This document shows positions 15,919 through 54,843 of a stretch of 64,000 nt of DNA, piece after piece. The notes beneath the pieces were generated by a model. The model was not told the DNA's origin. It worked only from the letters and a program-made list of their open reading frames with translations, and made no database searches. Within the stretch, counting starts at the first letter, position 1; each line of letters opens with the position of its first letter. Origin of the DNA: Pachysolen tannophilus NRRL Y-2460 (taxonomy: Eukaryota); contig KV454013.1 in NCBI GenBank assembly GCA_001661245.1, positions 1,148,502 through 1,212,501 on the forward strand. The letters are read 5' to 3'. The translations under genes were made by a program, and so were the position numbers.

Positions 15919-15949
<31 letters not shown>

Positions 15950-30776: not shown

Positions 30777-33700
30777 ATGACTGTTGATGAGCACAAGATT
30801 ACTATTGCGATTGATAGAGGTGGAACTTTCACCGATGTGATATATCGAGTTGGTCAGCGTGAGGAAGCGTTCAAGCTTCTTTCTGTTGATCCTAATAATT
30901 ATAAGGATGCCAATATTGAAGGTATTAGGAGAGTTCTTGAGAATGTTCATGGGAAGCGGATTCCAAGAGGTGAAAAACTTGATACTTCGTCCATTTCTTC
31001 TATTCGTCTAGGAACTACCGTTGCTACGAATGCTTTATTGGAAAGAAAAGGAGCTCGTTGTGCTTTGGTTACTACTAAAGGGTTTAAGGATCTTTTGCAT
31101 ATTGGAGATCAATCTCGGCCAGAATTGTTTGCACTTAACATTGTCAAGCCTGGAGTCTTATTTGATCAAGTTGTTGAAGCAGATGAGAGAGTCACTATGC
31201 CTGCTTTTACAGCAGATCCAACGAACTATGATGCAAGAGATCTAGTCGATAATGAAAGATATGTGCTTGGTGAGACCAATGAGGTTTTCGAGATTTTGAA
31301 ACCACTTGATACTGGAAAGTTAGAAACAAGTCTTAGAGCTGTGAAAAAATCAGGTATAGATTCGATAGCAATTGTCTTTATTCATGGTTTCAATTTTCAT
31401 AAACATGAAGAGCAAGCAGGAGAAATCGCAAAAAAAATTGGATTTAAGAACATTTCATTATCTCATAAGATTTTGCCAGTTTTGAAAGCTGTTCCTCGTG
31501 GTTGCTCCACCGTTGCTGATGCTTATTTAACGCCAATAGTTAAAGAATACATTTCAAATTTCCTTAGTGGGTTTCAAGAAAATTTCGAAAACCATACAAG
31601 GGTAGAGTTTATGCAATCCGATGGTGGTTTATGTTCCTGGAGAAACTTTACTGGTTTGAAGTCATTGCTTTCTGGTCCAGCAGGAGGCGTGGTTGGTGAA
31701 GCAAAAACTTGTTATGATTTTGAAAATAAAATTCCAGTTATTGGTTTTGATATGGGTGGAACTTCAACTGATGCTTCTAGATACGCAGGTGAACTTGAAT
31801 TTTCATTTGAAAGTGTTGTTGCAGGTATCAAAATTGCAGCTCCGCAGCTAGATATAAATACTGTTGCTGCCGGTGGTGGGTCTGTGTTATCGTACAGAAA
31901 TGGTGTTTTCACTGTTGGTCCAGAATCTGCTAGTGCTCACCCTGGCCCTGCATGTTATAGAAAAGGTGGTCCTTTGACTATCACCGATGCCAACTTGTTT
32001 ACAGGTAGAATTCTTCCTGAATACTTTCCAAAAATATTTGGACCAAATGAAGATCAACCTTTAGATTTCGAGATAACAAAAAAAAATTTGAACAATTGGC
32101 CGAGGTGATTAGTAGAGATACTCCAGATCATCCAAAGACTCCCCAGGAAATTGCCTTGGGTTTTTTGAAAGTAGCAAATTTTCAAATGGCCAAACCTATT
32201 AGAGATTTAACTGAAGCTAAGGGTCACGATATCCAAAAACATGCTTTAGCTTCCTTCGGTGGTGCAGGTGGGCAGCATGCTACGTCAATTGCAAAAGTTT
32301 TGAAAATGAAGAAAGTATTAATTCATCAACATTCATCAATGTTATCTGCTTACGGTATCGGTTTAGCTGATTTGGTGGATGAAACACAAAAGCCTGTATC
32401 AGTCGTTTACTCAGAAACAGCAAGAGATTCATTACTTGAAATGTGTCTGGAACTCTCTCAAAATTCTAAAAAGGCATTAGTTTCTCAAGGTGCTAAGTCA
32501 GAAACTATCACAAGTGTTATTTATTTTAACATGGGTTATAAAGGCTCTGATACAAGAATTATGGTTCCTTACTCTAACGATGTGGATTTTCTTCCAGCAT
32601 TTTATGCTATCCATGACAGAGAGTTTGCCTTTAATGACAAACACAGAGACGTTCTAGTCTCTGATATTCGTATTAGAAGTGTTGGCAGTGCATCTGGCTC
32701 CGTTACCGAACGTTCACCTTATAAAGATTATGAAGCTGTTGAAAAAGTTCCTGCTGATTTATCATTAGCAAGGAAAATAACACCAATTATTTTCGATGAA
32801 GGATCGTTAGACTCTCCTGTATTTTTCTTAGCTGACTTAAAGGTCGGCAGCGTGGTGAAAGGTCCTGCGCTTATATTAGATAGTACACAAACATTGCTTA
32901 TAACTCCAGATTCTACTGCTACAATTTTACCAAGACATGTTATGGTTGACGTTGAAGTTGAGGCAAAGAGTAATGTTGGAACAGACTATGTTGATCCTGT
33001 CCAATTGGCTATCTTTGCTAATAGGTTTATGTCAATTGCTGACGACATGTCAAGAACTTTACAGAAGATTTCGGTTTCTGCTAATATAAAAGAAAGAATG
33101 GATTACTCATGTGCATTATTCGATAACCAGGGAAATTTAACTGCAAATGCACCAAATGTCCCGGTACATCTTGGTTCTATGTCTGCAGCTATTAAATATC
33201 AATTAGACTACTGGGGAGATGATTTGAAAGATGGGGATATCTTGTGTACCAATTCGCCAACTGTTGGTGGTACTCACTTACCTGATATCACTGTTGTTTC
33301 TCCTGTATTTCATGATGGTGTTATTCAATTTGTCGTTGCTTCTCGTGCTCATCATTCTGAAATTGGTGGTACTTCTCCTGGCTCTTCTTCATCTTATGCT
33401 CGTGAAATTTTTGAAGAAGGTGTTAATATCGAAACTTGGAAGCTTGTTAAAGATGGAGAATTTGATTATGCCGGATTACAAAAACATTTTGTTGAAGTAC
33501 CTAAATCTCACGGTGTTTCTGGTACTAGAAATATTGATGATAACGTTGCTGATTTGAAAGCCCAAATAGCATCCAATAAGAGGGGTATCAACTTGTTAAA
33601 AGACTTGTTTAAGGAATACAATAGCGAAACAGTTTTATTTTATATGAGAAATGTAAAAAGAACTGCTGAATTGGCTGTCAGAGAATTTTTGAAAAAGTTT

Positions 33701-34726
33701 GCTGCTGAAAATAAGCACCGATTGCCATTGATAGCAGAGGACTACATGGATGATGGAACCAAGATTAAAGTTACTATTGATATTAATGAAGAGACTGGTT
33801 CTGCTATATTTGACTTTAATGGTACATCTTTGGAGTCATATAGTAATTTAAATTCTCCAAAATCCGTCACTTTTTCTGCTGTGATTTATGTTTTAAGGTG
33901 TTTAGTAGATATGGATATTCCTTTGAACCAAGGTTGTTTAGATCCCTGTACTATTATTGTTCCTGAAAATAGCTTGATCAATCCATCTCCATATGCTGCT
34001 GTTTGTGCTGGTAATGGTATGACGTCCCAAAGAATAACTGATTGTTTGTTTAAAGCCTTTGCATTAACTTCAGCTACTGGTGGCTGTATGAATGGCTTGA
34101 ATTTTGGAATTGGTGGTGAAAATGAGAACGGAGAGATGATCAAAGGTTTTGGTTATACTGAAACAATTGGTCAAGGTAATTGTGCCGGTATAATTGAAAA
34201 AAATGGCGAGAGAATTGGCTTCAATGGATTTTCTGGAACTCAAACCAATATGACGAATACAAAGATCACTGATCCAGAGGTACTTGAGCTACGTTATCCA
34301 TGTTTGCTTTTGCAATACACGATTCGTGAGAACAGTGGCGGTATCGGTAAATTTAATGGTGGTAACGGTTTAATCAGAGAAATTCAGTTCAATTCTCCAG
34401 TTCACTTGTCTTTGGTTACACAGAGAAGAGTTTTTGAGCCATGGGGAATTTTTGGTGGTGGAAATGGTAAGAAAGGTGAAAATTATCTCGGTAGAAATAG
34501 AGGAAATGGAAAGATTCAATGGATTCAATTGCCTTCATTAGCTGAAATAAAAATGAGAAAAGGTGATATTTTGAAAGTTTTAACTCCCGGAGGTGGCGGT
34601 TTTGGTGATCCTAATGATACTGATGAGTACTGGAGATTAACTAAACCTTCTAATTCAAATGTCTTTATTCCTCTTTCATCTGGAACTCTTGGAAATTTGC
34701 AAGAAACTGTCAATGCATCTCAATAG
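30777..34726 (+). CDS. OXP1: ATP-dependent 5-oxoprolinase/hydantoinase (Oxp1-like), interrupted by a frameshift at an A9 run (32078-32086)
   Basis: IDRGGTFTD, GTTVATNALLE, SGPAGG, DMGGTSTD, TVAAGGGS, FGGAGGQH, SANIKER, GGTHLPDIT, TPGGGGFG. One extra A gives the continuous reading KKKFEQLAEVI. May be a paralogue rather than the housekeeping OXP1. Confidence 0.85.
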
Positions 34727-35372: not shown

Positions 35373-38300
35373 CTACCAATCGAGAGAAGCATCGGTAGAG
35401 CAGCTTCCGCCAACAGTAGTTAGGGGTCTCTTTGGTACCTTTATCTTGAATTTCAAGTCAATATTTTTGAAAACCTCGTTATGAGTCTTTTCAGATTCCT
35501 CTTGCTTGACTTTCCATCTCTTTGTTCCCAACATATCATCCAATTCTGAGTCTGGTGGTAACTTGATATAAATATTACCATCTTCTCCATCTTTCACCTC
35601 AAAAACAGCTACCGATTGTGCGGCGTCGTTCTTGCATGAACCTGATTCATCTTTATCGTTGTCGATAATGTAATTTCTCTTGTGCAAAGGACATGATATA
35701 TATGTATTATGATTCTCATCTGTACCTAAAATACCTTCGGATAAGACAAAAGCTCTCTTATGCCCACACATATTCTGGGAAGCAAATAGTTTTCCATTCA
35801 ATCTAAAAATTGCTATTTGTGTGTCCGAAACTAACACTGTGGCTGATGAACCTGCTTCTTGATCTGGAAGATCTGTCGAAGGGCATATCTTTTTCCAAGC
35901 TAGTGAAGACCAGGTTATACCTTTGAAATCTTCTCTTTTCAAATTATCATCAACTGGCCAATTTGCCGGTCTTCTTTGGCCTCTTTCTCTGATAATCTCC
36001 ACGGTTTCTTGTTCTTGATCTGTATTGATGAATTGTTTGAACCTTGGATCATTCTTCTGGTTTTTGACAGCTTCATCCCATTCGTCGTAATAATGGCCGA
36101 CCAATTCATTCATTTGATCTTCCAACTCCTGAGCAATACCCAATTTATCATAAACAATAACATCTCTCAAGTACTCAATGCCTCCTGGTAAATTCTCTAA
36201 CCATCTTGCAGTTCTTTGCAATTTGTCCGCAGTTCTTAAGTAAAACATAAGATACCTATCAAGCAAAGGAATAACTTGATCTGGAAGAACACTGGCTTTT
36301 AATAATTGGCCATGTGCAGGTTTCATACCCCCGTTACCCCCAACAAAGACATTATAACCAGAACCAGTCTCATTTTGAACAGCAGAGAGACCAAAATCTT
36401 TGCCGTGCATTTCAGCGCAATCCCTAATACAACCAGATACACCACCTTTAAATTTATGAGGTGATCTTATACCTTTATATCTCTCTTCTAGTCTAATTGC
36501 CAATCCTACTGAATCACCGACTCCAAAACGACACCACGTTGAACCAACACAGGACTTTACATTTCTCAAAGTCTTTCCATAAGCTTGACCGGATTCAAAT
36601 CCAGCTTCATTTAAATCCTCCCAAATTTGAATTAAGTCTTGTTTCTTTGCCCCAAACAAATCAATTCTTTGTCCACCTGTTATCTTAGTATATAAATCAA
36701 ACTTTTTGGCTATTTGGCCCAATGCAATTAATTTTTCAGGAGTTATCTCACCTGCTGAACATCTAGGTACAACAGAGTAGGTACCGTTTCTCTGCATATT
36801 GCCCAACATTCTGTCATTGGTCTCTTGCAAACCATGAACATCGGCTGACAATAAATGCCTGTTAAATAAAGTAGATAATATTGATCCAATACAGGGTTTG
36901 CAGATCTCACAACCTGAAGCTCCCGGCTCATTACCTAATTCTTCCATAACCTGCCTAAAGCTTTGATATCTTCTAACCATGATCAACGAGAATAAATCAG
37001 CTCTAGATTGCTTAAAATGAATACACAATGCATGCGAGATTGTTTTCCCCATTTTAACCATCTCTGCCTCAAAGATAGATTTAACCGTAGGTAAACATCC
37101 TCCACAAGCTGTACCAGCTTTAGTACAAGAACTTAATTCTGAGATAGTGGTGCAAGTTCCATCTCTTACTTTTTCCAGTAATCGTCCTTTGCTTACATTG
37201 TGGCATGAACAAACTTGTGTATCATCTGATAACATTGAAACATCATCTTCACTTTCACCTGGTTTGCCCAATATCAACTCAGAAACAGAACATGGTAAAG
37301 GCTTCTTGGTCTTGGCTAATGCAGAGAATTTAGTAAAATTTTTGGTGTCACCCACCAATATTCCTCCAAGTAAATATTTTCCATCTTTCGTGACTATCAA
37401 CTTGGTGTAAAAGCCCTGGACAGGGTCCTCATAGATTAAAGATTTTGTAAGACATTTGCAATCTTTTTTGTCGAAACCGCGAGGTAACCATTTTGGTTCA
37501 TTTTTATCAGCAAAATAATCTCCAAATGAAGCAACATCCACACCCATTAATTTCAATCTTGTACCAACATCTGGTTCTGAGAAAGTGCTTGGTGTATGAT
37601 ACTTTGCTTGAGTTAGGTTGAATGCAAGAATGTCAGCCATTGTGACACCTGGTGCAATTAATCCATAAGTATTATTATTCCAAGAAGCACATTCACCAAT
37701 TGCAAATATATTTTCGTCTGATGTCTGCAAAGAATCATTAACTTTTAAACCACCTCTAGGAGCAGTTTCAATTTTGGCACTACAAGCTAATTCATCTCTA
37801 GGTTTAATACCAATAGTATAACATAATAATTGACAATCTTCTATTTCTCCATTATTATATCTCACTTGCTTCAATTTCTGATTTTCATCAAATATAAGTT
37901 CTTCCACTGTTGTACTAACTCTGGCTATTATTCCCAAGTCGGTAACTTTTTCTGTCAACAAATTACCTCCCTTTTCATCCAATTGTTGAGATAAGAGCCA
38001 AGATGATCTATGTGATATAATGACGTTATCATAAAGTTGTATATCCTGTAGTGCTTTTGCAGCTTCAAGTCCTAATAATCCACCTCCAATAACAACCGCC
38101 TTTTTAGTCTTGTGCGTAAGTGTTTTTGAGAAGCTAAGCATAGCATTCAAATCATCAATGTTACGATATACAAACACACCCATTGGACGATAAGAACTGA
38201 GAACTTCCTTATCTCCATTTCTCGGTTCGGGAAGTAAGTTTAAAGGTAAGACAGCATTTGAACCAGTTGCAAAGACTAACTTATCATAAGAATAGGTCAT

Positions 38301-38666
38301 GCCTTTTGAAGTTTTAACTTTTTTTTCTTCTCTATTCAATTCTACCACTGGATCGTCTAATCTAAAATCCCATTTACTTTGATCTCTGTTATCGTAGAAT
38401 TCTTTTGGAGATAAAAGTAAATTGTCAAAATTTCTATGCTCAAAATATTCAGTTAAACCAACTCTATTATAAGCCAAATATGGTTCTTCTGCTAAAATGG
38501 TAATCTTATACTCATTCTCCTTTTCGTCATTTATCAACATTTTCTCTAGAAAAGCCATTGCAACCATACCAAAACCAATTACAACCAAGTTTTTTCTAGG
38601 TCTTTCAACAGGTCTTCCTGGCAAAGGAGGTATACCATGGCTAACAGGTTCAGAAGCTTCCAACAT
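35373..38666 (-). CDS. YNI1: Assimilatory NAD(P)H nitrite reductase
   Basis: FAD/NAD domains (GGGLLGLEAA), BFD-like [2Fe-2S] motif (CSCHNV...CGGC), siroheme/4Fe-4S cysteines (KSCVGSTWCRFG, SGCIRDCAE), C-terminal Rieske-like CGH...CPLH; ATG at 38666. Confidence 0.96.
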   Translation of the reverse strand: MLEASEPVSHGIPPLPGRPVERPRKNLVVIGFGMVAMAFLEKMLINDEKENEYKITILAEEPYLAYNRVGLTEYFEHRNFDNLLLSPKEFYDNRDQSKWDFRLDDPVVELNREEKKVKTSKGMTYSYDKLVFATGSNAVLPLNLLPEPRNGDKEVLSSYRPMGVFVYRNIDDLNAMLSFSKTLTHKTKKAVVIGGGLLGLEAAKALQDIQLYDNVIISHRSSWLLSQQLDEKGGNLLTEKVTDLGIIARVSTTVEELIFDENQKLKQVRYNNGEIEDCQLLCYTIGIKPRDELACSAKIETAPRGGLKVNDSLQTSDENIFAIGECASWNNNTYGLIAPGVTMADILAFNLTQAKYHTPSTFSEPDVGTRLKLMGVDVASFGDYFADKNEPKWLPRGFDKKDCKCLTKSLIYEDPVQGFYTKLIVTKDGKYLLGGILVGDTKNFTKFSALAKTKKPLPCSVSELILGKPGESEDDVSMLSDDTQVCSCHNVSKGRLLEKVRDGTCTTISELSSCTKAGTACGGCLPTVKSIFEAEMVKMGKTISHALCIHFKQSRADLFSLIMVRRYQSFRQVMEELGNEPGASGCEICKPCIGSILSTLFNRHLLSADVHGLQETNDRMLGNMQRNGTYSVVPRCSAGEITPEKLIALGQIAKKFDLYTKITGGQRIDLFGAKKQDLIQIWEDLNEAGFESGQAYGKTLRNVKSCVGSTWCRFGVGDSVGLAIRLEERYKGIRSPHKFKGGVSGCIRDCAEMHGKDFGLSAVQNETGSGYNVFVGGNGGMKPAHGQLLKASVLPDQVIPLLDRYLMFYLRTADKLQRTARWLENLPGGIEYLRDVIVYDKLGIAQELEDQMNELVGHYYDEWDEAVKNQKNDPRFKQFINTDQEQETVEIIRERGQRRPANWPVDDNLKREDFKGITWSSLAWKKICPSTDLPDQEAGSSATVLVSDTQIAIFRLNGKLFASQNMCGHKRAFVLSEGILGTDENHNTYISCPLHKRNYIIDNDKDESGSCKNDAAQSVAVFEVKDGEDGNIYIKLPPDSELDDMLGTKRWKVKQEESEKTHNEVFKNIDLKFKIKVPKRPLTTVGGSCSTDASLDW
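35418..35703. repeat. Source copy of the 286-bp direct repeat, inside YNI1
   Basis: Matches 23585-23870 in the same orientation. Confidence 0.92.
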
Positions 38667-39299
38667 CTTCACTATGATCCAAACTAATAATTTCAAAAGA
38701 AAGAAAAATAAAAGAATAATAAGATCAAATATATACCTACCTTCTAAAGTTTTCAAAAGAAACAAAATAATTACAAAAGATAGAACCAACAGCACTTAAG
38801 TGTTTTTTTTTTTTTTTTTTTTTCATTTTTGAATGCCGAATCTTTAATAACCATCGCTTTCTTAAATTAAGTTCTATAGCAGCAATATCAACTTGATCAT
38901 GTTCCCACTAAGATGGTGGTGACATCAAAAACTAAATTACTAATCTCCAAATAATTGAAATCAATTGGTTGGTCAACTCAAAGGATGAGACTATCAAAAA
39001 ATTATATGCAATGCAAACTAGTGTTATCTAAAATTTTGTTCTGAAAAAAATTTTTTTTTAGTTGCAGCATCGACGGAGAATATATTCTTTTATCTTTTCA
39101 TGAAGAATTTCAATACAATTTTAATAATTTTAGTTAGCCGAGCTGTTATATCTCTCTTATCAGAGGAAAGAGGAATTTAAAAAAGCTTTAGCGCAAATCA
39201 ATTAATTTTTTAAAACAAGTATAATTTATTTATTTATATCAGAAAGAAGAAGAAGAAAAAGCAATAAAAAAATAAAGAAAAAAAAAAACTTCTAAACTT

Positions 39300-40874
39300 T
39301 TATACTTTATCTACTTCGGAATCATTTTTCTCTTTGTAACCTTCCGGTCTATCCTCTCTAACTGGAATAAAAGCTATTCCAAAATTAACAATCATCATGA
39401 CAATTCCAATAATCCAAAACGATTTGAAGTAGTTTGTTACACCGTCTGTAGCTTGATACCTGAAAACCAAGGAGAAAAAAATACCTCCCAAATTACCGAA
39501 AGCACCTGTTATTCCTGAGACTATACCTGTGTGATGTGGATTAATTTGTGGAACCAAGCAAAAATTTGCACCATTTCCCATTTCCATAAAGATATCCATT
39601 ATTGCCATTGCTACAATTAGACCAGCCATTGGTAAATCTTTTTTCAACCCAATCCAAAGTAAAAAAAGTCCTTCCATAAATCCACAAAAGATCATCCAAA
39701 ATTTTTTAGCTTTTGTAGTTTTGAAAAAACGATACAAGAAATCTCCAATAAGCCCACCTACTGGTCTTGATACGACGTTTAATAATCCCAACATTGAAGC
39801 CCAATCACCAGAAAGTTGTTGACTCCATTTATTTCCTGAATGTTGTTTGTATAATGCTGTCATAACACTTTCTACTGCCAACTCTCCACCAAATGTAGTT
39901 AAATAAGCTAAGGCTACTAACATTGTTCTCCAATGGAAACCAACTTTTAATAAATCTAATGGTTTTGGGTTTTCAATAATGTCCTCCAAATCAACAATTT
40001 TACCCATTTGTGTTTCAACTGGAACAATCCCTTCTTCTTTTTCAAGATTACTATCTTTGTTTTGGAAAGCTTCTATAACTTGCTTTGAAGTAATTGGTTC
40101 AATTAATTCTTTTTCATTTGAAGCACTCATTGGAACTGAAAGAACGTTTGTAATTGTGACATCAATTCCAATACCCAACACATCAGTACGATCCAGCCAT
40201 TTCCCCTCGGGACAATCTTGACCAAATATAATCACTAAAGCTGCAACGAAAAGTAATATAATCATTGGTCCAATAACAAAAGCATAACCCCATGTCTTGT
40301 GTAAAGAATAACCATCATTTGCTAAATCTGCAACAATTGCTGGCATAACGAAAAATGCAACACCACCTCCAGCATTACCCCATCCACCAACCAAAGAATT
40401 TGCTGTTCCAACAATAGAAGTATCAAAGAAAACTGTTGTCCAAACCTGACAAGGAACAAAAGAACCACCTAATAACCCAATGAAAAATCGTATAGCATGA
40501 AGACCACTTACATTTGTTACACAGGGAATTAAAGCAGTTGGTACAGTTCCCACTATTAATACACCTGCCATTGTCCATCTTGGACCAAACCTATCACATA
40601 ATGGACCTAAAATGACTCTTGCAACCAAAGTTGCTGCTAACCCACAAATATTGTTGTTTGAAATATCCTTTGCTGTCAATTTCAAATCTTCCTTTACCGT
40701 ACCTGAAAGTAAAGGTGGGAATGCAAACCATGATAAAAATGAAGCGAAAAACCCTAACCACGCTAAATGGAAAATTCTACCATAAGGGTCAAAAACATTG
40801 AGTAACGGAATAGATAATGCTTTCCGAGTCTTGGGATTAATCTCAGGATTTTGCCATAACGTTTGTAATTTCAT
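39300..40874 (-). CDS. YNT1: High-affinity nitrate transporter (NRT2/NNP family)
   Basis: Nitrate signatures GGWGNAGGG and GAFGNLGG, GPLCDRFGPR, FGGELAV, GNGANF; ATG at 40874. Confidence 0.95.
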   Translation of the reverse strand: MKLQTLWQNPEINPKTRKALSIPLLNVFDPYGRIFHLAWLGFFASFLSWFAFPPLLSGTVKEDLKLTAKDISNNNICGLAATLVARVILGPLCDRFGPRWTMAGVLIVGTVPTALIPCVTNVSGLHAIRFFIGLLGGSFVPCQVWTTVFFDTSIVGTANSLVGGWGNAGGGVAFFVMPAIVADLANDGYSLHKTWGYAFVIGPMIILLFVAALVIIFGQDCPEGKWLDRTDVLGIGIDVTITNVLSVPMSASNEKELIEPITSKQVIEAFQNKDSNLEKEEGIVPVETQMGKIVDLEDIIENPKPLDLLKVGFHWRTMLVALAYLTTFGGELAVESVMTALYKQHSGNKWSQQLSGDWASMLGLLNVVSRPVGGLIGDFLYRFFKTTKAKKFWMIFCGFMEGLFLLWIGLKKDLPMAGLIVAMAIMDIFMEMGNGANFCLVPQINPHHTGIVSGITGAFGNLGGIFFSLVFRYQATDGVTNYFKSFWIIGIVMMIVNFGIAFIPVREDRPEGYKEKNDSEVDKV

Positions 40875-41716
40875 AACCAAGATCCAAAAAAAAAAAAAAA
40901 AAATTAAAATTAAAATTAAAATAAAATGAAAAAAGTTTGATACACCTTCAATTCACAACCAAAAATTTTTTTTGTATTGAACTTTAACCAACTTTAACAA
41001 ATATATATATATACATCAAGAACTCATTGTTTCACAAAACCTCTGCTATATATATATCTGCGTATTTACCTATCTATCTATCTATTTACTTATTTACTGA
41101 TGTAACGTTTTTTCCATCAAGATCCAAGACTTCAGATAAACTAACTTACATATAAAAGATGATAAGAATTTATTGCACACTTTATTTTTTTAGTCCTCCC
41201 ATTCCGAAAACATCTCACTACAACTAATTAACTAGGTAACACATCCTATTTCTTGGAAAAACGTCTTTGCATGAATTAAAAGGAAATATTTTCCGCTTAT
41301 TTCTTATCAAAAAAAAGAAATCTAAGACATAATTAGCGATTGAAGTCATCGGCAACTAATACGTCCATTCCAGTATATTTAGCTAATGCTGTCCTCTGTC
41401 CTGCATGGACCCTTGCGTTACGAAAATTGAAAATTCGAGAATGGGACAAAATTATTTAATACCAAAAATGGAAACCCAGAAACAGCCCCTAAATTATCTC
41501 TTTTTCCAAACAAAAAGTAGTGTTCTTTATACTAAAAACAAAAGGTAGTGTTTTTATACCAAAAAAAGAGAAAACGGGCCGGCCTTCCGGAAACGGAAAT
41601 GTATCCGGAAAGATGGTTGGGTAAGAAGTACTGTTTTACCATTTAAATTTTGTAGTTTATAAATGTATTTATTCAGGTTGATATTAGAGGTGTTGTGGCT
41701 CTTGATTGATTGAGAG

Positions 41717-43609
41717 ATGTCGTCATCAGTTCATCATCGTCGACCGGCGTCGTTGGCTTCAGTGGCTTGTGTTTTATGTAAAAAGAGAAAGAGAAAATGT
41801 GATGGGCAGAAACCGTGTAGTACTTGTAAGAAGTATAATAATGCTTCTAATTGTGAATATCCAGTTGATAAAGATAGGAGAAAATGGAAACATGATTCTT
41901 CATATGTTGATTATTTAGAAGTTAAGTTGGATTTATTGGAGCAATTTTTCAATGAGTTGAATAAATCTAATCCTGAAAAGGCGTCTTTTGTTAGGGAGAA
42001 ATTGAAAATTGAATTACCCTTGATGCCTCTGGTTGCATCATCAACAAATCCAAAATTAATGCAAATGGCAAATCCAAAGGCTTTAGATGAGTTTTTATCT
42101 ACTGCGTGGAGGGTTCGTCAATATGTACAAGGTGGAAGAACAGAATTTTATGGGCCTATATCAGGGAGGCAACAAGTTTTAGAAGAAGAAGAACTTGAAT
42201 CATCACTGACTCCAAAAGATGGGAAAATAGATATCATTTTAACTTCAAAGGGATTTAGAAATGAATTATTTGATATTTTTGAAAGAAATTTTTCAAATTT
42301 TTTCTATATTTCTTCATTAACTTTACCAGAAATTAGGAATTGGGATTTTCCCAATAAAGAAGCCAATAAACAATTTTTATTATGTGCCATTTTTGCTTAT
42401 GCTTCGGTCTATACAAATATGAAGCATGTTTCATCCAGTTTTGTATTGGAGGCAGAATCAGTGGCATTGGCTGCTTGTAGGTATTCATTGGATGAATCAA
42501 CTTTACAAGGTTTATTAATACTATCATGTTTTGAATTAGGTATGGCTTACGATTCAGCTTCTTGGTTATTCAATGCAATGTGTGCATCTCAAACACAATA
42601 CTTGGGATTACATTTAGGAGATTGTGCAACTCCTTTTGGTCTGCTGATACGACAACAACAACAATCAGAACTTGTTTCAAGATCTCCTTTAAAATCGGCA
42701 GCTTTTTGGTCGATTGTTATGCAAGATAGGTTAATAACAAGTTTCTTGGGCCGTGGATGTCGTATTCAATATTTTAGAATTTTAGCACCTTTTTATTCTC
42801 CTGTAATTTTTAACAAATCAAATCCAAATTATTTGTCAGAATTGGTTTTCACATATCATTCAAGACTTTGGTATATTCATGATCGTTCAATCAGTCAAAT
42901 ATATTCTTTTAAAGCTAGATTTTTACACAATTCTCATAGAATGGCATTATTACAACAAGGTGTCAGTTCTTTAAAGATTTTATACCAATCTTTCCCAGAA
43001 GATATTAAATTGAATTGGAACTTCTTAGATTCAAGAGTATTAATGTTACACCTATCCTACTACGTGGTTCTTTTGTTGTTACATAGACCATATCTAAGTT
43101 CTTTCCCAGAAAAATTCATGGAAATATCTATTGAACAATGTGTTAATGCTTCCAAAGTTGTGGACCTGTATAATAAAGAATACGGATTCAATAATGCCCC
43201 ATATTTTGCAAGTTATCTAATTTTGTCCTGTGCAATGTTTGATTTATTCATATTGGCTAATAAAGACGAATCTTTAAAACCGGAGGCCTACAGAAGAATG
43301 GACATTTTTATAACAGCATTGCTACAGTTTGGAAAAGTCTGGAAAAGAGGATATAAAGATATCCATGTATTATCAGTTTTAGCTGACAAATGGTCTGTTC
43401 ATTATCCATTTTTGAAAGAAACCTCACATCTCTGTGATACCCAAAGTTTTGAAAATTTTTCAAATAATAATCAGTTTCACACTGAGTTCTCATCTCATAT
43501 GGATAATGATGTTTCGGATATTGAGAAACAGTACGAAAATATGCATTATTTTAAAGAAAAAATGTTTGATTTTGATGGAGATAATATGATGGACAATTCT
43601 TGGGTTTAA
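41717..43609 (+). CDS. Zn(II)2Cys6 transcription factor, Yna1/Yna2 (NirA-like) nitrate regulator candidate
   Basis: ACVLCKKRKRKCDGQKPCSTCKKYNNASNCEY, FYGPISGR, LLLHRPY; lies between YNT1 and YNR1. YNA1 versus YNA2 cannot be assigned by eye. Confidence 0.85.
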   Translation: MSSSVHHRRPASLASVACVLCKKRKRKCDGQKPCSTCKKYNNASNCEYPVDKDRRKWKHDSSYVDYLEVKLDLLEQFFNELNKSNPEKASFVREKLKIELPLMPLVASSTNPKLMQMANPKALDEFLSTAWRVRQYVQGGRTEFYGPISGRQQVLEEEELESSLTPKDGKIDIILTSKGFRNELFDIFERNFSNFFYISSLTLPEIRNWDFPNKEANKQFLLCAIFAYASVYTNMKHVSSSFVLEAESVALAACRYSLDESTLQGLLILSCFELGMAYDSASWLFNAMCASQTQYLGLHLGDCATPFGLLIRQQQQSELVSRSPLKSAAFWSIVMQDRLITSFLGRGCRIQYFRILAPFYSPVIFNKSNPNYLSELVFTYHSRLWYIHDRSISQIYSFKARFLHNSHRMALLQQGVSSLKILYQSFPEDIKLNWNFLDSRVLMLHLSYYVVLLLLHRPYLSSFPEKFMEISIEQCVNASKVVDLYNKEYGFNNAPYFASYLILSCAMFDLFILANKDESLKPEAYRRMDIFITALLQFGKVWKRGYKDIHVLSVLADKWSVHYPFLKETSHLCDTQSFENFSNNNQFHTEFSSHMDNDVSDIEKQYENMHYFKEKMFDFDGDNMMDNSWV

Positions 43610-43756
43610 CTTATATTTATTTGTATATATATTTAATTAAAAAAGGTTTGGTTTATATATAGTTTTCAAGTATATATCTTTATTATGGAAACTATGGGGA
43701 AAAAAACGAAAGAAAAAAAACAAACTTGTAGATTAGCGAGCGGAATTGATATACTT

Positions 43757-46417
43757 TTAAAAGCAAAATATATTCTTATCAGGAACGTTATTTCTTCTTG
43801 CCCATTCTTTGACACCATCGTTCATTGCAGGGGGACCACATATTAAAACCATAAAGTCTTCGTCTTTGTATTTTCTATTCAGCAGATAATTGTCCAATTT
43901 TCCAGAATCTATATAACCTGTTAAACCTTTCCAACTCTGGTCAGCGACTGCTTCTTTAGAACTTAAGACATAATTAACTCTAAAAGTTGAAGGTTTCAAT
44001 TTTACGTATTGGTCAATTTCCTCTTTGCATAATATGTCGATTTTGTTCCTATTCCCAAAATAAAAATCAACTTCCGTTGAATCTTCTGGGTTTGTTACTA
44101 TCTCTTTAAAAACTTGATAGCATGGAGTAAGACCACTCCCACCACTTACCATCAAAAATGATTTTGTTTTTCTAGTTTCCTTGTTAATTGTGAACTCACC
44201 ATAGCCATGGTACTCAAATTCTCCAATTGGACCTTTAACTTCAATATGGTCACCAATTTTTAAGTTTTCCAATAACATAGTCATTCTACCACCAGGAATG
44301 TTTCCTTTAGGAAAATAGACTTTAATCAAAATTTCCAAGACACCTTTAGTTCTATGACATGACTTTGGAGTATATGCTCTCATAACAAGACCTTTAGAAT
44401 CCTTGTAACGTATGAATAAATGCTGACCAACTGGTAAACCAGAAGTTTGTTCTGAGTGTTCAAGCTCAAAGGAAAAAATCCTAGAATCAGGAGAAATTTC
44501 TTCACGTTTAAGTAACTTCAGTTTTTTCCATTTTTTTGGTTCCAAAAAGGTTGGACTTAAATTAACAGAGTCATGATTAGAAGGTGCTTTTTCGGTTTTT
44601 TCTGAACCCTCCAAAGCACCCAAATGAAATTTAGCCAAAGCTTTTTTCAGGTTATCAGAGTGAATTGCCATAAAATCATCAGTAGCATCTTCACCTGCAA
44701 CTAATGTGATACTCTGGGCTCCACCAGGATGTTCATCAAGATAAGGGACACCATCGTAGACTTGACCATTGACAACAAACCAACAATCTGTTTCAGTAGA
44801 ATGTTTGGATAATTCTTCTTTTGTGATAACAATATTCAATTTTTCAGGATTTGTCATCATTTCAAAATCAATCATTGCCTGTGTAATACCTCCTTCATTT
44901 TCGTCTTGATTATCGTCACCTTCTTTTTCTCCCCAGGTTCTAGAAAGAATGTTTCCTCCTTCTGCCTTTATTCTATCCATCCATCCACCATTGTTACCAC
45001 CTTTTGTTGCATGAACTGGATGCTCAAATCTAATTGCACCATTTTCTTCACTTTGTACGGCAACACGATACCACCAATTGTTCAACATAGAAGTAACATT
45101 CCAGTACATATCTCTTGGCTGGACACACATGTTTTCATCCATTGCTCTAACAACAATATCTTTTGCATTTTTTAACTCTATTTTTTTAACATCGATTTTC
45201 CAGAAACACCAACAAAGATAAGACATTCTTTCACAAACGTTTACTTCACCTCCAAATAACTCAAAAATGCCAGCATCTCTGTATTTATCCTCAGGATAGT
45301 CTATCTCAGCTAATCTCCAACTTTTCCCTCTATCAAGGCTGATCTCAACTCTTCCGACTCTGATTCCACCACCATTATACGCAAACCCTCTTACTGGATA
45401 AGTTTCATTGCTTTCACTGTTTATATCTTTAAATTGCATTAATTCTCTATTTTCAGGATACACAATGATACTTTGTATATTTAAATTATAGACTGTATAT
45501 CTTTCATCTTTCCACCACTCTTTATTGGCCTTTGCTTCTTCTGGGGTGACCATTGTGGGTAATACTTTATTGTCAAAATAATGATACCAGTTTGTTGATG
45601 GGGTCTCAGCAACAATTAATTTTTTCAACCATTTAACAGATCTACCACCAATAACACCTGGAATTACAACTCTCAAAGGTTTCCCATGATCAGGTTCTAA
45701 GAGGCAACCATTTTGCTTATATGCCAACATAATGCTTCTTTCAGGATCCAATACCCATGGAAGACGGACACAAGTACCATAGGCTCCATTTGCTGGATTA
45801 TCTGCACCTTCCATCCAAACAAAACGAGCTTTTCTGTGCGGCTTTGCTTTACGAATAACATCTCCTAACATTGCTCCAGTCCATAATGAATTAGAAATAC
45901 CTGCTGCTCCCCAATTAAACCCAGCACCTTTCTTAACCATGTTTTGTTCTTTCCTACGATTCCCTGCACAAACTAGAGTTATTGGAACTGTGTATTGAGT
46001 AAACTCTGAAATTAAGTCTCTTAAAGTTAAAACCATTGGATTTTGTACCATTCCTTCAATGGAAATTTCCCAGTTTAAAATTTCTTCATCTTGAACTTTT
46101 GGCACCGGCCCATGGTTTCGAACAAAATGAATCGCTGCAGGAGTCAAGAATCCAGTATCATATAGCAAGGACAATGGAGCTTCCGCATTAAATGGATGAG
46201 CACCAGTGAGCCTCAAGAGACGGGGATCTCTTGGTACATGGTTGTCTTCACCTTTAGCATCAATCTCCAACACATCCTCAATCCGTTTTTTAGCATCTTC
46301 AATCACTGGGAATGGGTATTTTGTCTCATCTCCTTTCAACGAAATTAAAGTGTTGATATAGGCATCCAGCTTTTCTGAACTGGCTTGTTGTGATCCCACT
46401 GAAGTTGAAGTAGTCAT
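43757..46417 (-). CDS. YNR1: Assimilatory nitrate reductase (Moco, cytochrome b5 and FAD domains)
   Basis: RLTGAHPFNAE, VRNHGPVP, LVCAGNRRKEQN (Mo-ligand Cys), HPGG heme motif, RAYTP, GGSGLTP, CGPPAM. Confidence 0.97.
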   Translation of the reverse strand: MTTSTSVGSQQASSEKLDAYINTLISLKGDETKYPFPVIEDAKKRIEDVLEIDAKGEDNHVPRDPRLLRLTGAHPFNAEAPLSLLYDTGFLTPAAIHFVRNHGPVPKVQDEEILNWEISIEGMVQNPMVLTLRDLISEFTQYTVPITLVCAGNRRKEQNMVKKGAGFNWGAAGISNSLWTGAMLGDVIRKAKPHRKARFVWMEGADNPANGAYGTCVRLPWVLDPERSIMLAYKQNGCLLEPDHGKPLRVVIPGVIGGRSVKWLKKLIVAETPSTNWYHYFDNKVLPTMVTPEEAKANKEWWKDERYTVYNLNIQSIIVYPENRELMQFKDINSESNETYPVRGFAYNGGGIRVGRVEISLDRGKSWRLAEIDYPEDKYRDAGIFELFGGEVNVCERMSYLCWCFWKIDVKKIELKNAKDIVVRAMDENMCVQPRDMYWNVTSMLNNWWYRVAVQSEENGAIRFEHPVHATKGGNNGGWMDRIKAEGGNILSRTWGEKEGDDNQDENEGGITQAMIDFEMMTNPEKLNIVITKEELSKHSTETDCWFVVNGQVYDGVPYLDEHPGGAQSITLVAGEDATDDFMAIHSDNLKKALAKFHLGALEGSEKTEKAPSNHDSVNLSPTFLEPKKWKKLKLLKREEISPDSRIFSFELEHSEQTSGLPVGQHLFIRYKDSKGLVMRAYTPKSCHRTKGVLEILIKVYFPKGNIPGGRMTMLLENLKIGDHIEVKGPIGEFEYHGYGEFTINKETRKTKSFLMVSGGSGLTPCYQVFKEIVTNPEDSTEVDFYFGNRNKIDILCKEEIDQYVKLKPSTFRVNYVLSSKEAVADQSWKGLTGYIDSGKLDNYLLNRKYKDEDFMVLICGPPAMNDGVKEWARRNNVPDKNIFCF

Positions 46418-46965
46418 TCTTGTAAGAACAAATTATTAACAGTCAAAAGCAAAGAAAAAACAAAAAAAAAAAAAAAAAAAAACGAAAAAACAAAGAAAGC
46501 AAAAAAATTCATAAAATATTCTTAAACTAATAGATTGTTTTTAAAAAAAATCAGAAATTAACAGCCAGCAATACTCCAACTTGATCCTGATAAAAGTCTG
46601 CACTAGTTTAGTTCAGTTAATATGATAATAAACTCAATTGTTGCAAACTTAAGATTTTTTCAGAATGCGTTCTGAACGCACCTTCTTATTCTCTTCCTGC
46701 ATAATAAAAAATTTTCAGCCGCAGATAAAGATAACTTTCTCATCCAATTGAGAACGCAGACGGAGAAATTCTCCGATGCTGATTTCAGCAGCCCCTGTTT
46801 TTATTTTTTTATTTTAATTTTTCCGTTTCCATTTTTTACTGGGGCGGCTGTATCATTTTTGGGGTTTTTTCTTTTGATGTTTTCATTAATACCACAAGTT
46901 TAAAGAGTAAAAGTGTATCTGTTAATTTATTATATTTATTATATGGAGAAAGAAAGGGCAGATCA

Positions 46966-48183
46966 ATGGGTTTGAATAGGAGTTTTTCCAGTTATGTTCT
47001 CAAGAGATGTTTTTGTAGTTCGAAGAGGGTAATTTTTAGCCAATCATTATTGAGCAATAGTCATAATTTAAATTTAGTGCGTAATGGAGTCAAGGGTAAT
47101 ATTATAAGCAATAATAATAATCATTTAATATATGAAGATAAAAGGTTTAGCTTGAGCCGACTTGAAATTTTGAAAAATGAGAGAATTAAACCATTTTCTG
47201 AGTTTTTAACTGATAATTATAATAGGAAACATGATTATTTGAGGATATCTATAACTGAACGATGTAATTTAAGATGCACATACTGTATGCCTGAAGATGG
47301 TATAGAATTAACACCAAATGAGAAATTGTTAACCACAGAAGAGATTTTGAGAATTGTGAGGATATTTATTTCTCAAGGTGTGACGAAGGTGAGATTAACC
47401 GGTGGTGAGCCAACTGTTCGGAAAGATGTTGTAGAATTGGTGAAAAGATTGAATGAATTAGAAGGATTAAAAGAGATTTGTATGACTTCTAATGGAATTG
47501 CTCTTCATAGGAAACTTCCTGAATTATTTGCTAGTGGGCTTACTTCGTTGAATTTAAGTCTTGATACTTTAATAGAGGGAAAATTTTTATTAATAACCAG
47601 AAGAAATGGATTAAATGCAGTTATGAAATCTTTGAACAAAGCTTTAGAATTAAATTTACCAAAGATTAAGCTTAACGTTGTTATCATGAAAAATATTAAT
47701 GAGGATGAAATTCTTAATTTTGTTGAATTGACTAAAAATGCTAAAGTTGATGTTAGATTCATAGAATATATGCCATTTGAAGGTAATAAATGGCGAAATT
47801 CCAAGATGGTGAAATATGAAGATATGTTAAATAATATTAAAGTTGTTCACCCTGATATTTATAGATTGGACCATAATCATGGTGATACTTCCAAAAATTT
47901 TCAAATACCAAATTATAAAGGAAAAATTGGTTTTATAACTTCCATGACTGAAAATTTTTGTTCTACATGTACGAGATTAAGAATAACAAATGATGGCAAT
48001 TTAAAAGTATGCTTATTTGGTAATAATGAGGTTTCTTTAAGAGATTTATTAAGACAAGGTAAAAATGATGATGAGATCTTGCAACATATTGGTAAACTGG
48101 TTAAAAGTAAAAAAGCTAAACATGCTGGTATTGGTGAATTGGAGAATTTACCAAATAGACCTATGATTCTTATTGGTGGGTAA
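46966..48183 (+). CDS. MOCS1A: MoaA/MOCS1A/Cnx2 radical-SAM GTP 3',8-cyclase with N-terminal mitochondrial-type presequence
   Basis: YLRISITERCNLRCTYCMP, RLTGGEP, FCSTCTRLR...VCLF and C-terminal RPMILIGG; Arg/Ser-rich N-terminus. Confidence 0.95.
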   Translation: MGLNRSFSSYVLKRCFCSSKRVIFSQSLLSNSHNLNLVRNGVKGNIISNNNNHLIYEDKRFSLSRLEILKNERIKPFSEFLTDNYNRKHDYLRISITERCNLRCTYCMPEDGIELTPNEKLLTTEEILRIVRIFISQGVTKVRLTGGEPTVRKDVVELVKRLNELEGLKEICMTSNGIALHRKLPELFASGLTSLNLSLDTLIEGKFLLITRRNGLNAVMKSLNKALELNLPKIKLNVVIMKNINEDEILNFVELTKNAKVDVRFIEYMPFEGNKWRNSKMVKYEDMLNNIKVVHPDIYRLDHNHGDTSKNFQIPNYKGKIGFITSMTENFCSTCTRLRITNDGNLKVCLFGNNEVSLRDLLRQGKNDDEILQHIGKLVKSKKAKHAGIGELENLPNRPMILIGG

Positions 48184-48256
48184 TAAAATTTTTTTTTCTT
48201 TTATTTTTTTTTTTTTTTTTTTGGCAAATTCAATTCTAACATTTTCTTCTTGATAG

Positions 48257-48831
48257 ATGATTTCTATAACAAATTCCACAATGGTATTTGGTTGAAAAAA
48301 ACTCAGTTTTCGAATATAAGGAGGATGTTCAGTACATTTCTGAGGAATTTAAATAATGATGATTCAAAGTTAACACACGTTGATGCATCTGGCAATGCAA
48401 ATATGGTTGATATACATAATAAGGAAATTTCACATAGAATTGCAAGAGCTTCAGGAACAATTGTTTTTTCAAATGATCTCCCTATAACATTGATAAGAGC
48501 GAATAGTATTAAAAAGGGAGATGTTATTAGTATAGCTAGAGTATCAGGTATAATGGCTGCTAAGAAGACTTCTGAATTGATACCATTATGTCATCCAATA
48601 ATGATAACTAAGGTGAAGGTTGATTTCACGATTGGAGACAACAAAATTGACGTGATTTGTTCAGTTGAGTGTGATGGTAAAACAGGTGTTGAGATGGAAG
48701 CACTAACGGGACTCAACGTTGCCTTATTAACAATATACGATATGTGTAAAGCAGTTGATAAAGAAATGGTAATAGGTAATGTTAAAATTATTCATAAGAG
48801 CGGTGGGAAATCAGGAGAGTTTAATCTTTAA
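48257..48831 (+). CDS. MOCS1B: MoaC/MOCS1B/Cnx3 cPMP synthase, probably expressed as exon 2 of a spliced MOCS1A-B fusion (alternative own ATG at 48325)
   Basis: [53 protein letters not shown]; preceded by a TTCTAAC branch and TAG acceptor. Confidence 0.92.
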
Positions 48832-49099: not shown

Positions 49100-49896
49100 T
49101 TACTCGTCATCTTCTTCTTCTAAAGTCTGAGCAGCAATACGATCTAAATCTCTCTGACCATTTTCAGAAATTCTTCTACCACCTTTTGGTGAGATTTCAA
49201 CAACACCAATTTTTTCCAAAGATTGTAAGACTCTTCTATTAACAGAACCTGAAGCATCAGCATGCTTTGATGGTCTAGCACCACGGTTAACAGCACCACC
49301 GTATAATTTGTTCAATTTACCAACACCAACTTGTTTTCTTAAGTAAATGTGTCTAGCAACTGAAGCAGCACGCTTGTAAAACCAAGTTTCAGCTTCTTGT
49401 GGTGGTAATTCGTTACCTGCTGAAGTCTTGACAATATCAACAAAACCTGGTACTTCTAATTTACCTTGACGTTGTAAGAATTGGGCATAAGCATTAATGA
49501 ATTCCTGAGCTGGAACATCTCTATAAATAATAAAAAAAAAGGTAATAAAAATGAAAACGTTAGTAATGAATTTCTTTTTTCTTTAAAAAATAAAAAACAA
49601 CTGGTAAAACATGAATCAACTTTCAATTTAAAAAGAGTCTTCTGAGATTCAAAATAAGTTCCATTTTACATTATCTATCTCCACTTGATCATTTGAAAAC
49701 ATTACCCATTTATGATTAATACTAATTTCTTATATTATTCACTTCATAAAACAACATTGAATACTTCTTCTTTACACTTTGATTAAATTCTCTTCTCTCT
49801 TCTCTCTTCTCTCTTCTTCTCTTTAAACTTCCAACTCAATCCATAAATTTACCAACATGAATAAAAACAAACCTACCTGACTGAAACACCTGGCAT
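49100..49896 (-). CDS. RPS19: 40S ribosomal protein S19 (eS19); exons 49896-49877 and 49520-49100
   Basis: MPGVSVR|DVPAQEFINAYAQFLQRQGKLEVPG...; GTAGGT donor, TACTAAC branch, TAG acceptor. Confidence 0.96.
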
Positions 49897-50106
49897 TTTC
49901 GGTTATAACTATTATTTCTATATTATAGATATATTTGATGTATTTTAACAAATCCTTAGTGGTATTATATATTGGAATGAAGATTTTTTTTTTTCAACCC
50001 CAGAACAGGAGAGTGAAAAAATTCAAAAAGAAAAAAAAAAAAAAAAAAAAAAAAATTAAAAAAAGTTTCGTGCAAAACTTTCCAAAAAATAAAAAAATTA
50101 AAACAA

Positions 50107-52360: not shown

Positions 52361-53448
52361 TTAAACTTTGAAACCCTTTGATCTTCTTCTACCTCTAGCT
52401 CTTTCGAATTTTCTACCCTTTGATAAAATTCTTGGAGCCTTGTTTTTATGAGGACCGAAACCGAAATGTCTAACAGCTTCTCTAGCATTTCTTGGACCTC
52501 TAACAATCAAAGTATTTTCACCTTTTGGAGCTCTTAAAGCCAATTGATCAAAAGTGATGGTTTCACCACCATTTTTCAAGATAGTAGCTCTAGCACCTGC
52601 AGTGAATCTTAAAGCAGCAACAGTTGTCTTTGGGAATGATAATAATCTTGTATCATCGGTAACGGTACCAACAACAACAATTATTCTTTGTGGAGCATTT
52701 TCCTGAGATGGTTTTTGGTTAACTGCTTTAGCAATTCTTGAAACAGAAACAGGAGGTCTGTTAATCTTTGACAAGAATAATGATTTTAAAATAACCTTGT
52801 TGAATGGAGCACCAGTACGACCTATTAATAAAAATAAATTATAATTAGTTAGTATTTTAAAATTCTGCTCAAAGATCGCACATAAAATATATTATTAAAA
52901 CCAATGAAAAAAAGAGAAAAAAATAATCTTTTTAATAATATTTTGTACTCGCAGAATATTTCAAAAACATTCATTCTCCTCATCAAGAGGAAAAAAAGAA
53001 TGAATATGTATCATATAATAGATAATAAAAAAAAAAATAGCTAGTTAATTCTAAATATCTTTCAAGTATGGGATAACTTATATTTATCGGTGTGTCTACC
53101 GAAATAAGTTCAACTCCCTCACAATTAAGATATAAAGAAATACAATTAAGTAAAAAAAAAAATTTTTTTTTCTTTAAAACTCAAGCCATATTCCCTTCCC
53201 ATCTATCATAATCACAAAGTATTTAATCTTGTTGACCAAATACTTTTCAAAATCTCTAAAATTTTTTAAAATTTTTTAAAATTCCAATAATATAAAAATA
53301 TAAATGTGCAATAGTGAATTATTCAGTATTACTTACGAGCTAAGAAAGCATATAATTTGACCAATGATCTCAAGTAGACGTTGTCTGACTTTGGAGCTTC
53401 ACGGTGACCAGATCTGGCGTGTTGCTTGGTGTAATGATCTCTACCCAT
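52361..53448 (-). CDS. RPL18: 60S ribosomal protein L18 (eL18); exons 53448-53337 and 52821-52361
   Basis: [15 protein letters not shown]...[14 protein letters not shown]...SKINRPPVS...[24 protein letters not shown] donor, TACTAAC branch, TAG acceptor. Confidence 0.96.
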
Positions 53449-54174: not shown

Positions 54175-54843
54175 ATGACAACTGAATTGACGTAAGTATG
54201 CTTTTTTTTTTTCTTTAAAAAAAAAAAGAGAATTATTTTATTAATTGTGAGATAAAAAGTTTCTAACTAAAAAAATTTGGTTTAATTTAGAACTGCTGTT
54301 ACCAATGCAAGAGGTATTCCTCAGGCTAAATTTATTGAAAATATTGATTTATTTATTAATAATAAATCTCCTAGTGAAGAATTAATCAATTCAAAACTTT
54401 CTTCAATACAGGACTTGTTGAATCAATTTAAATTTATGGAAGAATCAAAGAAAGTTTCTTTACAAAATTTAAAAATTAAAGTACCTGATTTAGAGCAAAA
54501 TATTTCAATTATTAAAACACTACAAGAAGAAAAAAAAAATGATGAATTTATAGAACAAGAAGTTAATTATCAATTAAATGATACAATTTTCACTAAAGCA
54601 GTGATAGATAAAAATGAATTGGAGTCTGTTTTTCTATGGTTGGGAGCTGATGTGATGTTGGAATACCCTATTGATGAAGCATTAGAAATGTTAAATAAAA
54701 GATTAAAAGAAGCTAATGAAAATAAGGATAAAACTGTAGAAGATTTGGAATTTTTAAGAGAAAATATAACAACCATGGAAGTCAATTTAGCTAGATTATA
54801 TAATTGGGATGTCAAGAGAAGAAGAGGAACAGATTCAAAATAA
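54175..54843 (+). CDS. PAC10: Prefoldin subunit 3; exons 54175-54191 and 54291-54843
   Basis: NARGIPQAKFIE, LWLGADVMLEYPIDEA, FLRENITTMEVNLARLYNWDV; intron GTAAGT...TTCTAAC...TAG keeps the frame. Confidence 0.92.

Follow-up and report, generated by a model that had tools for sequence, protein, structure and literature searches.

A probable nit-7/MOCS1-type locus in Pachysolen tannophilus, and overlapping splice donors at the end of fungal MoaA

Results

Anatomy of the locus

The coding sequences of two enzymes, MoaA (the GTP 3',8-cyclase) and MoaC, lie in tandem on the plus strand of a stretch of DNA from the yeast Pachysolen tannophilus NRRL Y-2460 (contig KV454013.1, positions 1,148,502 to 1,212,501). 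We refer to this whole stretch of 64,000 nucleotides (nt) as the window. Between the two coding sequences is an 81-nt segment that can be read as an in-frame intron, and it is the 5' end of this segment, where the last codons of MoaA overlap one and perhaps two splice donors, that concerns us here. The upstream open reading frame (ORF) has 405 codons (46966..48183), ends in CCT ATG ATT CTT ATT GGT GGG TAA TAA and is identified by Pfam as a MoaA-type radical SAM GTP 3',8-cyclase (Radical_SAM 3.7e-32, Mob_synth_C 3.1e-38, Fer4_12). Its first 56 residues include seven Lys or Arg and no Asp or Glu, so that the N-terminus fits the composition of a mitochondrial presequence. The features of the locus, with what each rests on, are as follows.

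46966..48175, plus strand: exon 1, MoaA (GTP 3',8-cyclase) through PMILI and the opening G of the Gly-Gly codons (Pfam, ORF)
48175..48186, plus strand: GGT GGG TAA TAA, the Gly-Gly terminus of MoaA with its tandem stop, lost from the RNA unless the 5' end of the intron is kept
48176..48256, plus strand: in-frame intron of 81 nt, whose removal takes out Gly-Gly and the stops (the spliced product is the public 594-residue protein P0001)
48176..48181, plus strand: donor 1, G/GTGGGT, spelled by GGT GGG plus the first T of TAA (sequence letters)
48180..48185, plus strand: candidate donor 2, GG/GTAATA, 4 nt 3' of donor 1, which would yield GG/A TGA (sequence letters)
48182..48222, plus strand: AATAAA (48182-48187), then a T-rich tract with a run of 19 T (T19, 48204-48222), a possible pyrimidine tract or 3'-end signal inside the intron
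48234..48240, plus strand: branch site TTCTAAC, 17 nt from branch A to acceptor G (the same TTCTAAC occurs in the prefoldin intron of the window)
48254..48256, plus strand: acceptor TAG (sequence, in-frame join, public model)
48257..48831, plus strand: exon 2, comprising a 38-residue linker, MoaC and the stop (Pfam MoaC domain at about 48403-48807, E 8.7e-54)
48319..48336, plus strand: linker motif R-R-M-F-S-T, resembling an R-3 site of the mitochondrial processing peptidase, with an internal ATG (48325) inside the motif

Removal of 48176-48256 (81 nt) leaves a single open frame of 594 amino acids (aa), in which MoaA minus its Gly-Gly is joined to a complete MoaC. Exon 2 opens with ATGA at 48257-48260, that is, with one base followed by a stop codon, and removal of 48180-48256 (77 nt) therefore gives GG/A TGA and a 405-aa protein identical to the product of the unspliced RNA. 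Both outcomes had been described in an earlier note on this DNA; its letters and positions are all exact in the sequence, and its arithmetic for the two donors holds. Contigs from four public runs of one study are genomic, carry no splice joints and break at the T-run (48182-48233).

Because the length of the intron is a multiple of three, the unspliced MoaA and MoaC frames coincide and are parted by TAA TAA alone. Readthrough of these stops would produce a 621-residue fusion that includes the intron-encoded peptide. We consider this origin of a fusion extremely improbable, as two tandem TAA codons would have to be passed and the intervening poly-Phe peptide is unlike any linker of 110 homologues. 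A fold of 48150-48290 revealed no RNA structure beyond chance (z = 0.11) and Rfam had no match in the window, both of which count against readthrough.

Credibility of the intron and conservation of its first donor

We drew a local splice consensus from four introns of the window, each verified by continuity of the ORF with conserved proteins.

49521-49876, minus strand: RPS19 intron (GTAGGT, TACTAAC, TAG)
52822-53336, minus strand: RPL18 intron (GTAAGT, TACTAAC, TAG)
8527-8609, minus strand: intron of an RRM protein gene (GTAAGT, TGCTAAC, TAG)
54192-54290, plus strand: intron of a prefoldin subunit gene (GTAAGT, TTCTAAC, TAG)

All four have G at +5, as does GTGGGT of donor 1, and the likeness to the AG/GTAGGT donor of RPS19 had been recognized in the earlier note. 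Signals of this type are common in themselves in such AT-rich DNA: a loose scan for GTRNGT...CTAAY...YAG returned 42 candidates on the two strands of the 64-kb window, which contains GTGGGT 12 times, TTCTAAC 10 times and GTAATA 54 times. What lifts donor 1 above chance is the in-frame join to a whole MoaC, the identity of the product to the public model and the position of the junction, which is shared with other fungi.

The public model in question, and the best protein match of the locus, is PACTADRAFT_57125 of P. tannophilus NRRL Y-2460 (594 aa). It is identical to the product of the 81-nt splice except for Ala in place of Leu at CTG codons, and CTG (CUG) read as Ala is the known code of Pachysolen (NCBI table 26). 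The MoaA-MoaC fusion is thus already annotated. It is the sole product in the public record, where the 405-aa Gly-Gly form has no entry. As catalysis by MoaA needs the Gly-Gly tail (PMC9026282), the 594-aa fusion alone would be unable to supply active MoaA, and the 405-aa form should join the annotation as a second product.

Fused homologues place the junction where the Pachysolen intron places it. In 112 fused models with the RPMILI motif, both Gly residues are deleted in 85, one is kept in 18 and both are kept in nine; 89 models of MoaA-only homologues, on the other hand, terminate exactly in GG. The residue at the junction, read from the listing of fused models, is mostly Asp and also Val, Ala or Glu, as expected for a donor placed after the first G of a Gly codon, which permits these residues. 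Brettanomyces naardenensis, with the junction PMILI/DH, has the sole other budding-yeast fusion of this type among the matches listed.

The donor itself can be followed in DNA. Metagenome contigs were scanned for DNA able to encode NRPMILIGG, which gave at least 116 loci with 111 unique contexts among the matches listed, the set to which all further metagenome counts refer. The first Gly codon is GGT in 77 of these contexts and the second is GGG in 63, with the pair GGT-GGG in 58 of 111; in the upstream open frames of the same loci, GGT and GGG make up 22% and 17% of Gly codons, respectively. Followed by the T of any stop codon, GGT GGG spells G/GTGGGT, and it is the rare GGG codon that provides the G at +5. 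Judged by this codon choice, donor 1 of Pachysolen is one copy of a widely conserved donor. Among the loci listed, the MoaA most like that of Pachysolen is at most 71% identical to it, over a short stretch only, and no spliced, cDNA-type contig was found. With G at both +3 and +4, GTGGGT is probably a poorer partner for U1 than GTAAGT, and part of the RNA would then stay unspliced.

The linker and the release of MoaC

The 38-residue linker had been likened in the earlier note to a mitochondrial processing site, and comparison with homologues bears this out as a conserved feature: RRMF/ST is a copy of a motif, R-x-[FYL]-[ST], that is kept in 97 of 110 fusion linkers anchored on the LTH motif, at a median of 21 residues before LTH. 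Shuffled linkers contain it in 16.7 +/- 3.5 cases, with a maximum of 26 in 500 shuffles; the observed count overstates independence, since most of the sequences are from related Sordariomycetes. We take the motif to fit the R-3 rule of the mitochondrial processing peptidase. It recurs in distantly related groups, in forms that include the following.

Pachysolen: RRMFST
Closest Logan relative: KRHFSS
Brettanomyces, three forms: RRFYST, PRSFST, ARCYST
Blastobotrys: ARSYSK
Protomyces: ARYYSS
Saitoella: ARAYST
Orbilia: RAYSTS
Sea anemone: TRAYSS

The arginines of the Pachysolen motif lie upstream of ATG 48325 and would therefore be translated only in the fusion. Start codons within the linker are not conserved in yeast relatives: the linker of B. 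naardenensis is without one, and the Brettanomyces bruxellensis models at NCBI begin no earlier than the conserved MVDV. Together, arginines confined to the fusion and unconserved linker starts argue against a free-standing MoaC.

A search for MoaC proteins of near-equal length returned mostly bacterial proteins and four useful yeast-like ORFs. The two B. bruxellensis models (P0362 and P0363, 146 aa), which start at MVDV, are without the N-terminal part of the domain and without the PRSFST linker, both in contrast to the 181-aa ORF P0236; a spliced MoaA-MoaC gene such as is annotated in B. naardenensis is probably present there too, with these models covering a truncated part of it. Separately, the MoaA protein models P0134, P0141, P0142, P0144, P0147, P0149 and P0373 (Trichomonascus, Sugiyamaella, Blastobotrys and others) extend past Gly-Gly, as GGLV... 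or GGFV.... In those yeasts the genomic stop after GG seems to be missing, and a free Gly-Gly end may need splicing to form.

A proposed route from one gene to two enzymes

Since the Pachysolen locus has all the sequence features of the nit-7/MOCS1 kind, we take the same mechanism as the best explanation. We propose, and consider it likely, that the locus is the orthologue of nit-7, MOCS1 and cnxABC, in which a stop-retaining RNA gives the 405-aa MoaA and the GTGGGT-spliced RNA gives a 594-aa fusion that supplies MoaC after mitochondrial cleavage. One gene would then encode the two enzymes of the path from GTP to cyclic pyranopterin monophosphate. An RNA that keeps the first bases of the intron would be translated to ...PMILIGG and terminate at TAA TAA, yielding an active 405-aa MoaA with a free Gly-Gly tail; this RNA could be unspliced or possibly ended at the AATAAA or T-rich tract inside the intron. 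The tandem TAA TAA itself suggests real termination on this RNA. Splicing from 48176 to 48256 would remove Gly-Gly and the stops and produce 594 residues made up of an inactive MoaA part, the 38-residue linker and MoaC. This fusion is expected to enter mitochondria by means of the MoaA presequence, and a cut near RRMF/ST would free MoaC. The sequence anatomy, the in-frame join, the identity to the public model and the conserved junction and linker motif are observed here. The existence of both RNAs, their ratio, mitochondrial import and cleavage are what we infer.

Several points weigh against this proposal. The spacer looks intergenic, with a T19 run and AATAAA: the window contains 15 homopolymer runs of at least 15, and when they are compared with the ORF list, 14 fall between ORFs (for example 15919-15942, 46462-46482 and 50031-50055) and the intron T19 is the exception; AATAAA is common, with 241 copies on the two strands. 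With A at -3, ATG 48325 would start a protein that contains the whole MoaC domain. The MoaA and MoaC enzymes of Ogataea parapolymorpha function as separate genes in other yeasts, where separate OpCNX1 and OpCNX2 suffice after engineering, as described in excerpts of PMC8456426. Finally, the public 594-aa model may be prediction-based.

The spacer, the downstream ATG and the Ogataea genes also speak for two ordinary neighbour genes, in which MoaA would have its 3' end in the T-rich spacer, MoaC would be expressed on its own from ATG 48325, and the intron would be an annotation artefact. We regard such an arrangement as improbable. Only 141 nt separate the stop from ATG 48325, out-of-frame ATGs at 48257 and 48281 precede it, and a protein starting with MFST has no presequence. 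The conserved linker arginines lie upstream of this ATG, and linker starts are unconserved in yeast relatives. Donor, branch site and acceptor are correctly ordered and give an in-frame join at a conserved junction. In Neurospora crassa, NIT-7B made by itself fails to be imported, and nitrate supported growth only when NIT-7A and NIT-7AB were both present (PMC7232280).

The second donor and a tandem-donor pattern in other fungi

In the earlier note, GTAATA was treated as a working second donor, so that both overlapping donors would be used: GTGGGT for the fusion and GTAATA for a spliced, export-competent MoaA mRNA, with donor choice setting the MoaA:MoaC ratio. For Pachysolen we find this doubtful. 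The removal of 77 nt does give GG/A TGA, and N. crassa nit-7 has a published second donor 9 nt downstream, detected by 5' RACE and not essential (PMC7232280). On the other side, GTAATA departs from GTRRGT, with T for G at +5 and A for T at +6, which makes it a weak donor by the standard of the window introns, and the same hexamer is abundant in the window, as counted above. Stops make up 0.16 of codons in the frame of exon 2 relevant to donor 2, which brings an immediate TGA near chance (about 1 in 6-10). The note's further claim, that the acceptor context keeps both outcomes productive, is not supported for Pachysolen, given this same expectation and the case of B. naardenensis, whose D-H junction (PMILI/DH) cannot rebuild an immediate stop. 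The product of donor 2 would also be redundant with that of the unspliced form.

The metagenome loci provide a broader view of the position 4 nt downstream of donor 1 (+4). By best match they are mostly from filamentous ascomycetes, 60-83% identical to named models. In the 58 GGTGGG contexts the hexamer at +4 is GTAGGT in 13, GTGAGT in seven and GTAAGT in four. GTRRGT thus occurs at +4 in 24 of 58, which far exceeds the expectation from two free bases. Loci that read GGT GGG T[AG][AG] GT include L004, L019, L031, L036, L060, L061, L064, L068, L069, L075, L077 and L093.

We then asked of each locus what exon 2 would do with either donor. Where MoaC lies downstream, the acceptor picked was the first that lets donor 1 read into MoaC, with a CTRAY branch preferred, and the outcome of the +4 donor was scored with that same fusion acceptor. 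This MoaC-anchored set has 25 rows (24 metagenome loci and the window), two of which are without a solution. With a consensus +4 donor, Gly-stop is rebuilt in 11 of 11, from exon 2 starts that read ATAA, ATAG, ATGA, GTGA or GTAA; with a non-consensus +4 donor it is rebuilt in 4 of 12, Pachysolen being one of the four. In a second set, without a MoaC anchor and picked by an open donor-1 frame, the figures are 5/5 for consensus donors and 3/8 for the others, and 23 loci gave no pick. Pooling the two sets gives 16/16 against 7/20 (Fisher p 5e-5) and, with near-duplicates removed, 14/14 for consensus donors (p 1.6e-4), for loci that are not phylogenetically independent and of which two consensus picks, L025 and L073, are without a branch motif and animal-like. 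Among +4 donors without G at +5, which is the state of GTAATA, the stop is rebuilt in just 4 of 17 picks. A stop in this position follows 20 of the 128 in-frame YAG sites overall, or by our arithmetic about 6% once the chosen sites are excluded.

It is difficult to account for this covariation, between a consensus +4 donor and a stop codon in bases 2-4 of exon 2, other than by use of the +4 donor in making a spliced MoaA-Gly-Gly mRNA. On the strength of this pattern we conclude that the tandem-donor design, with a +4 donor that would be productive, exists in other fungi. The earlier note had looked to the conservation of GGTGGGTAA...YAG-ATGA in other yeasts; as checked here, on loci mostly like those of filamentous fungi and on protein models, the pairing of donor and stop holds where the +4 donor is a consensus one and is the minority outcome elsewhere. 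The tandem-donor idea was therefore right in kind. In Pachysolen itself it is unproven, and the design has probably decayed, to judge from the letters of the donor.

How this may have come about is suggested by the second TAA, which in Pachysolen fills +5 and +6, the positions that would make GTAAGT. The second TAA breaks a GTAAGT-like donor, which points to a move towards termination on unspliced RNA. Read most simply, Pachysolen would have lost the +4 donor and would use an RNA that keeps the stop, with the ATGA at the start of exon 2 a relic or chance. A more far-reaching view would have ascomycete MOCS1/nit-7 genes produce both enzymes from spliced mRNA, with G/GTGGGT leading to the fusion, GG/GTRRGT and the same acceptor leading to Gly-Gly-stop, and donor competition setting the ratio; Pachysolen would still use the switch by way of its degenerate GTAATA, and intron retention would be dispensable. 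Taken as a whole, this view appears unlikely to us.

The nitrate assimilation cluster

The MoaA-MoaC gene stands at the edge of a nitrate assimilation cluster that spans 35373-48831, with the following neighbours assigned by Pfam.

35373-38666, minus strand: nitrite reductase
39300-40874, minus strand: MFS transporter
41717-43609, plus strand: Zn2Cys6 regulator
43757-46417, minus strand: nitrate reductase, divergent from MoaA-MoaC across a 548-nt spacer

In this arrangement the first step of cofactor synthesis seems physically tied to the main enzyme that it serves, and the position of MoaA-MoaC beside nitrate reductase suggests joint control of cofactor supply and enzyme. The spacer that parts MoaA from nitrate reductase has an unremarkable number of GATA sites (four, with about three expected). 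Upstream of the cluster, a hydantoinase/oxoprolinase is split over two adjacent ORFs (30777-34726, plus strand), with the Hydantoinase_A profile halting at 199 and resuming at 225, 78 nt on; a single gene, interrupted by a short intron or a break in frame, probably underlies the two ORFs.

Comparison with known systems

Both the kind of gene and its mechanism are already known, from N. crassa nit-7 and human MOCS1, and Aspergillus nidulans cnxABC, also mentioned in PMC7232280, likewise unites MoaA-like and MoaC-like parts in one fungal locus. The expectation that an intron-poor yeast retains a two-enzymes-from-one-locus mechanism is fair as regards the type of locus, which is not new and had already been annotated. 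What Pachysolen gains is mainly a corrected annotation, and the covariation that emerged as a by-product may matter more.

With tandem donors 4 nt apart, known as alternative 5' splice sites of the GYNNGY type, a change of donor usually shifts the frame and sends the message to decay. The overlap is likewise of this type here, where the GT at +5/+6 of donor 1 is the GT of donor 2. The fungal loci found here differ in that the shifted frame meets a stop that rebuilds a functional protein end. If true, the tandem-donor switch would be a rare productive use of a frame-shifting tandem donor; it would explain fungal MoaA without reliance on the export of unspliced RNA, and donor choice would offer a handle on the MoaA:MoaC ratio. 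In the literature searched, no account of a +4 donor that rebuilds a stop came to light, and the design may be new; Gray and Nicholls 2000, Probst 2014 and Unkles 1997, which were outside that search, may bear on the point.

Among yeasts, the CNX1 and CNX2 genes of O. parapolymorpha encode MoaA and MoaC homologues for nitrate assimilation, both taken as mitochondrial (PMC8456426). They differ from the Pachysolen locus in that, in the same excerpts, they are handled and expressed as two separate genes.

Human MOCS1 is comparable in that one locus gives MoaA with Gly-Gly and a fusion that lacks both Gly-Gly and the stop (bioRxiv 10.1101/429183, PMC9026282): type I RNA gives MOCS1A, and types II and III, without Gly-Gly and stop, give MOCS1AB (bioRxiv 10.1101/429183). 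Its linker has a predicted processing-peptidase site, and MOCS1B is described there as not translated on its own. The human gene differs in that it has 10 exons, with alternatives for the first, and reaches this result by leaving out exon 9 in part or entirely, and cleavage and import take another route (bioRxiv 10.1101/429183).

The closest parallel is N. crassa nit-7, as described in excerpts of PMC7232280. There Gly-Gly and the stop are encoded by the gene's single intron; NIT-7A is made from unspliced RNA, and the fusion NIT-7AB from RNA that has lost 1460-1696. Both proteins are required for growth on nitrate, a condition in which unspliced nit-7 RNA increases, and NIT-7B is set free once the fusion has been imported (PMC7232280). 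The Pachysolen locus is like it in the Gly-Gly and stop encoded at the 5' end of the intron, in the presence of a downstream donor (a candidate one in Pachysolen) and in the link to nitrate, whereas the N. crassa intron is 237 nt long and that of Pachysolen 81 nt. The second donors also differ. The one in N. crassa (deletion 1469-1696; 1470T>C strain) lies at +9 and, judging from its position and the Figure 4 legend of PMC7232280, would keep the natural stop, whereas the Pachysolen candidate lies at +4 and would have to rebuild a stop from exon 2.

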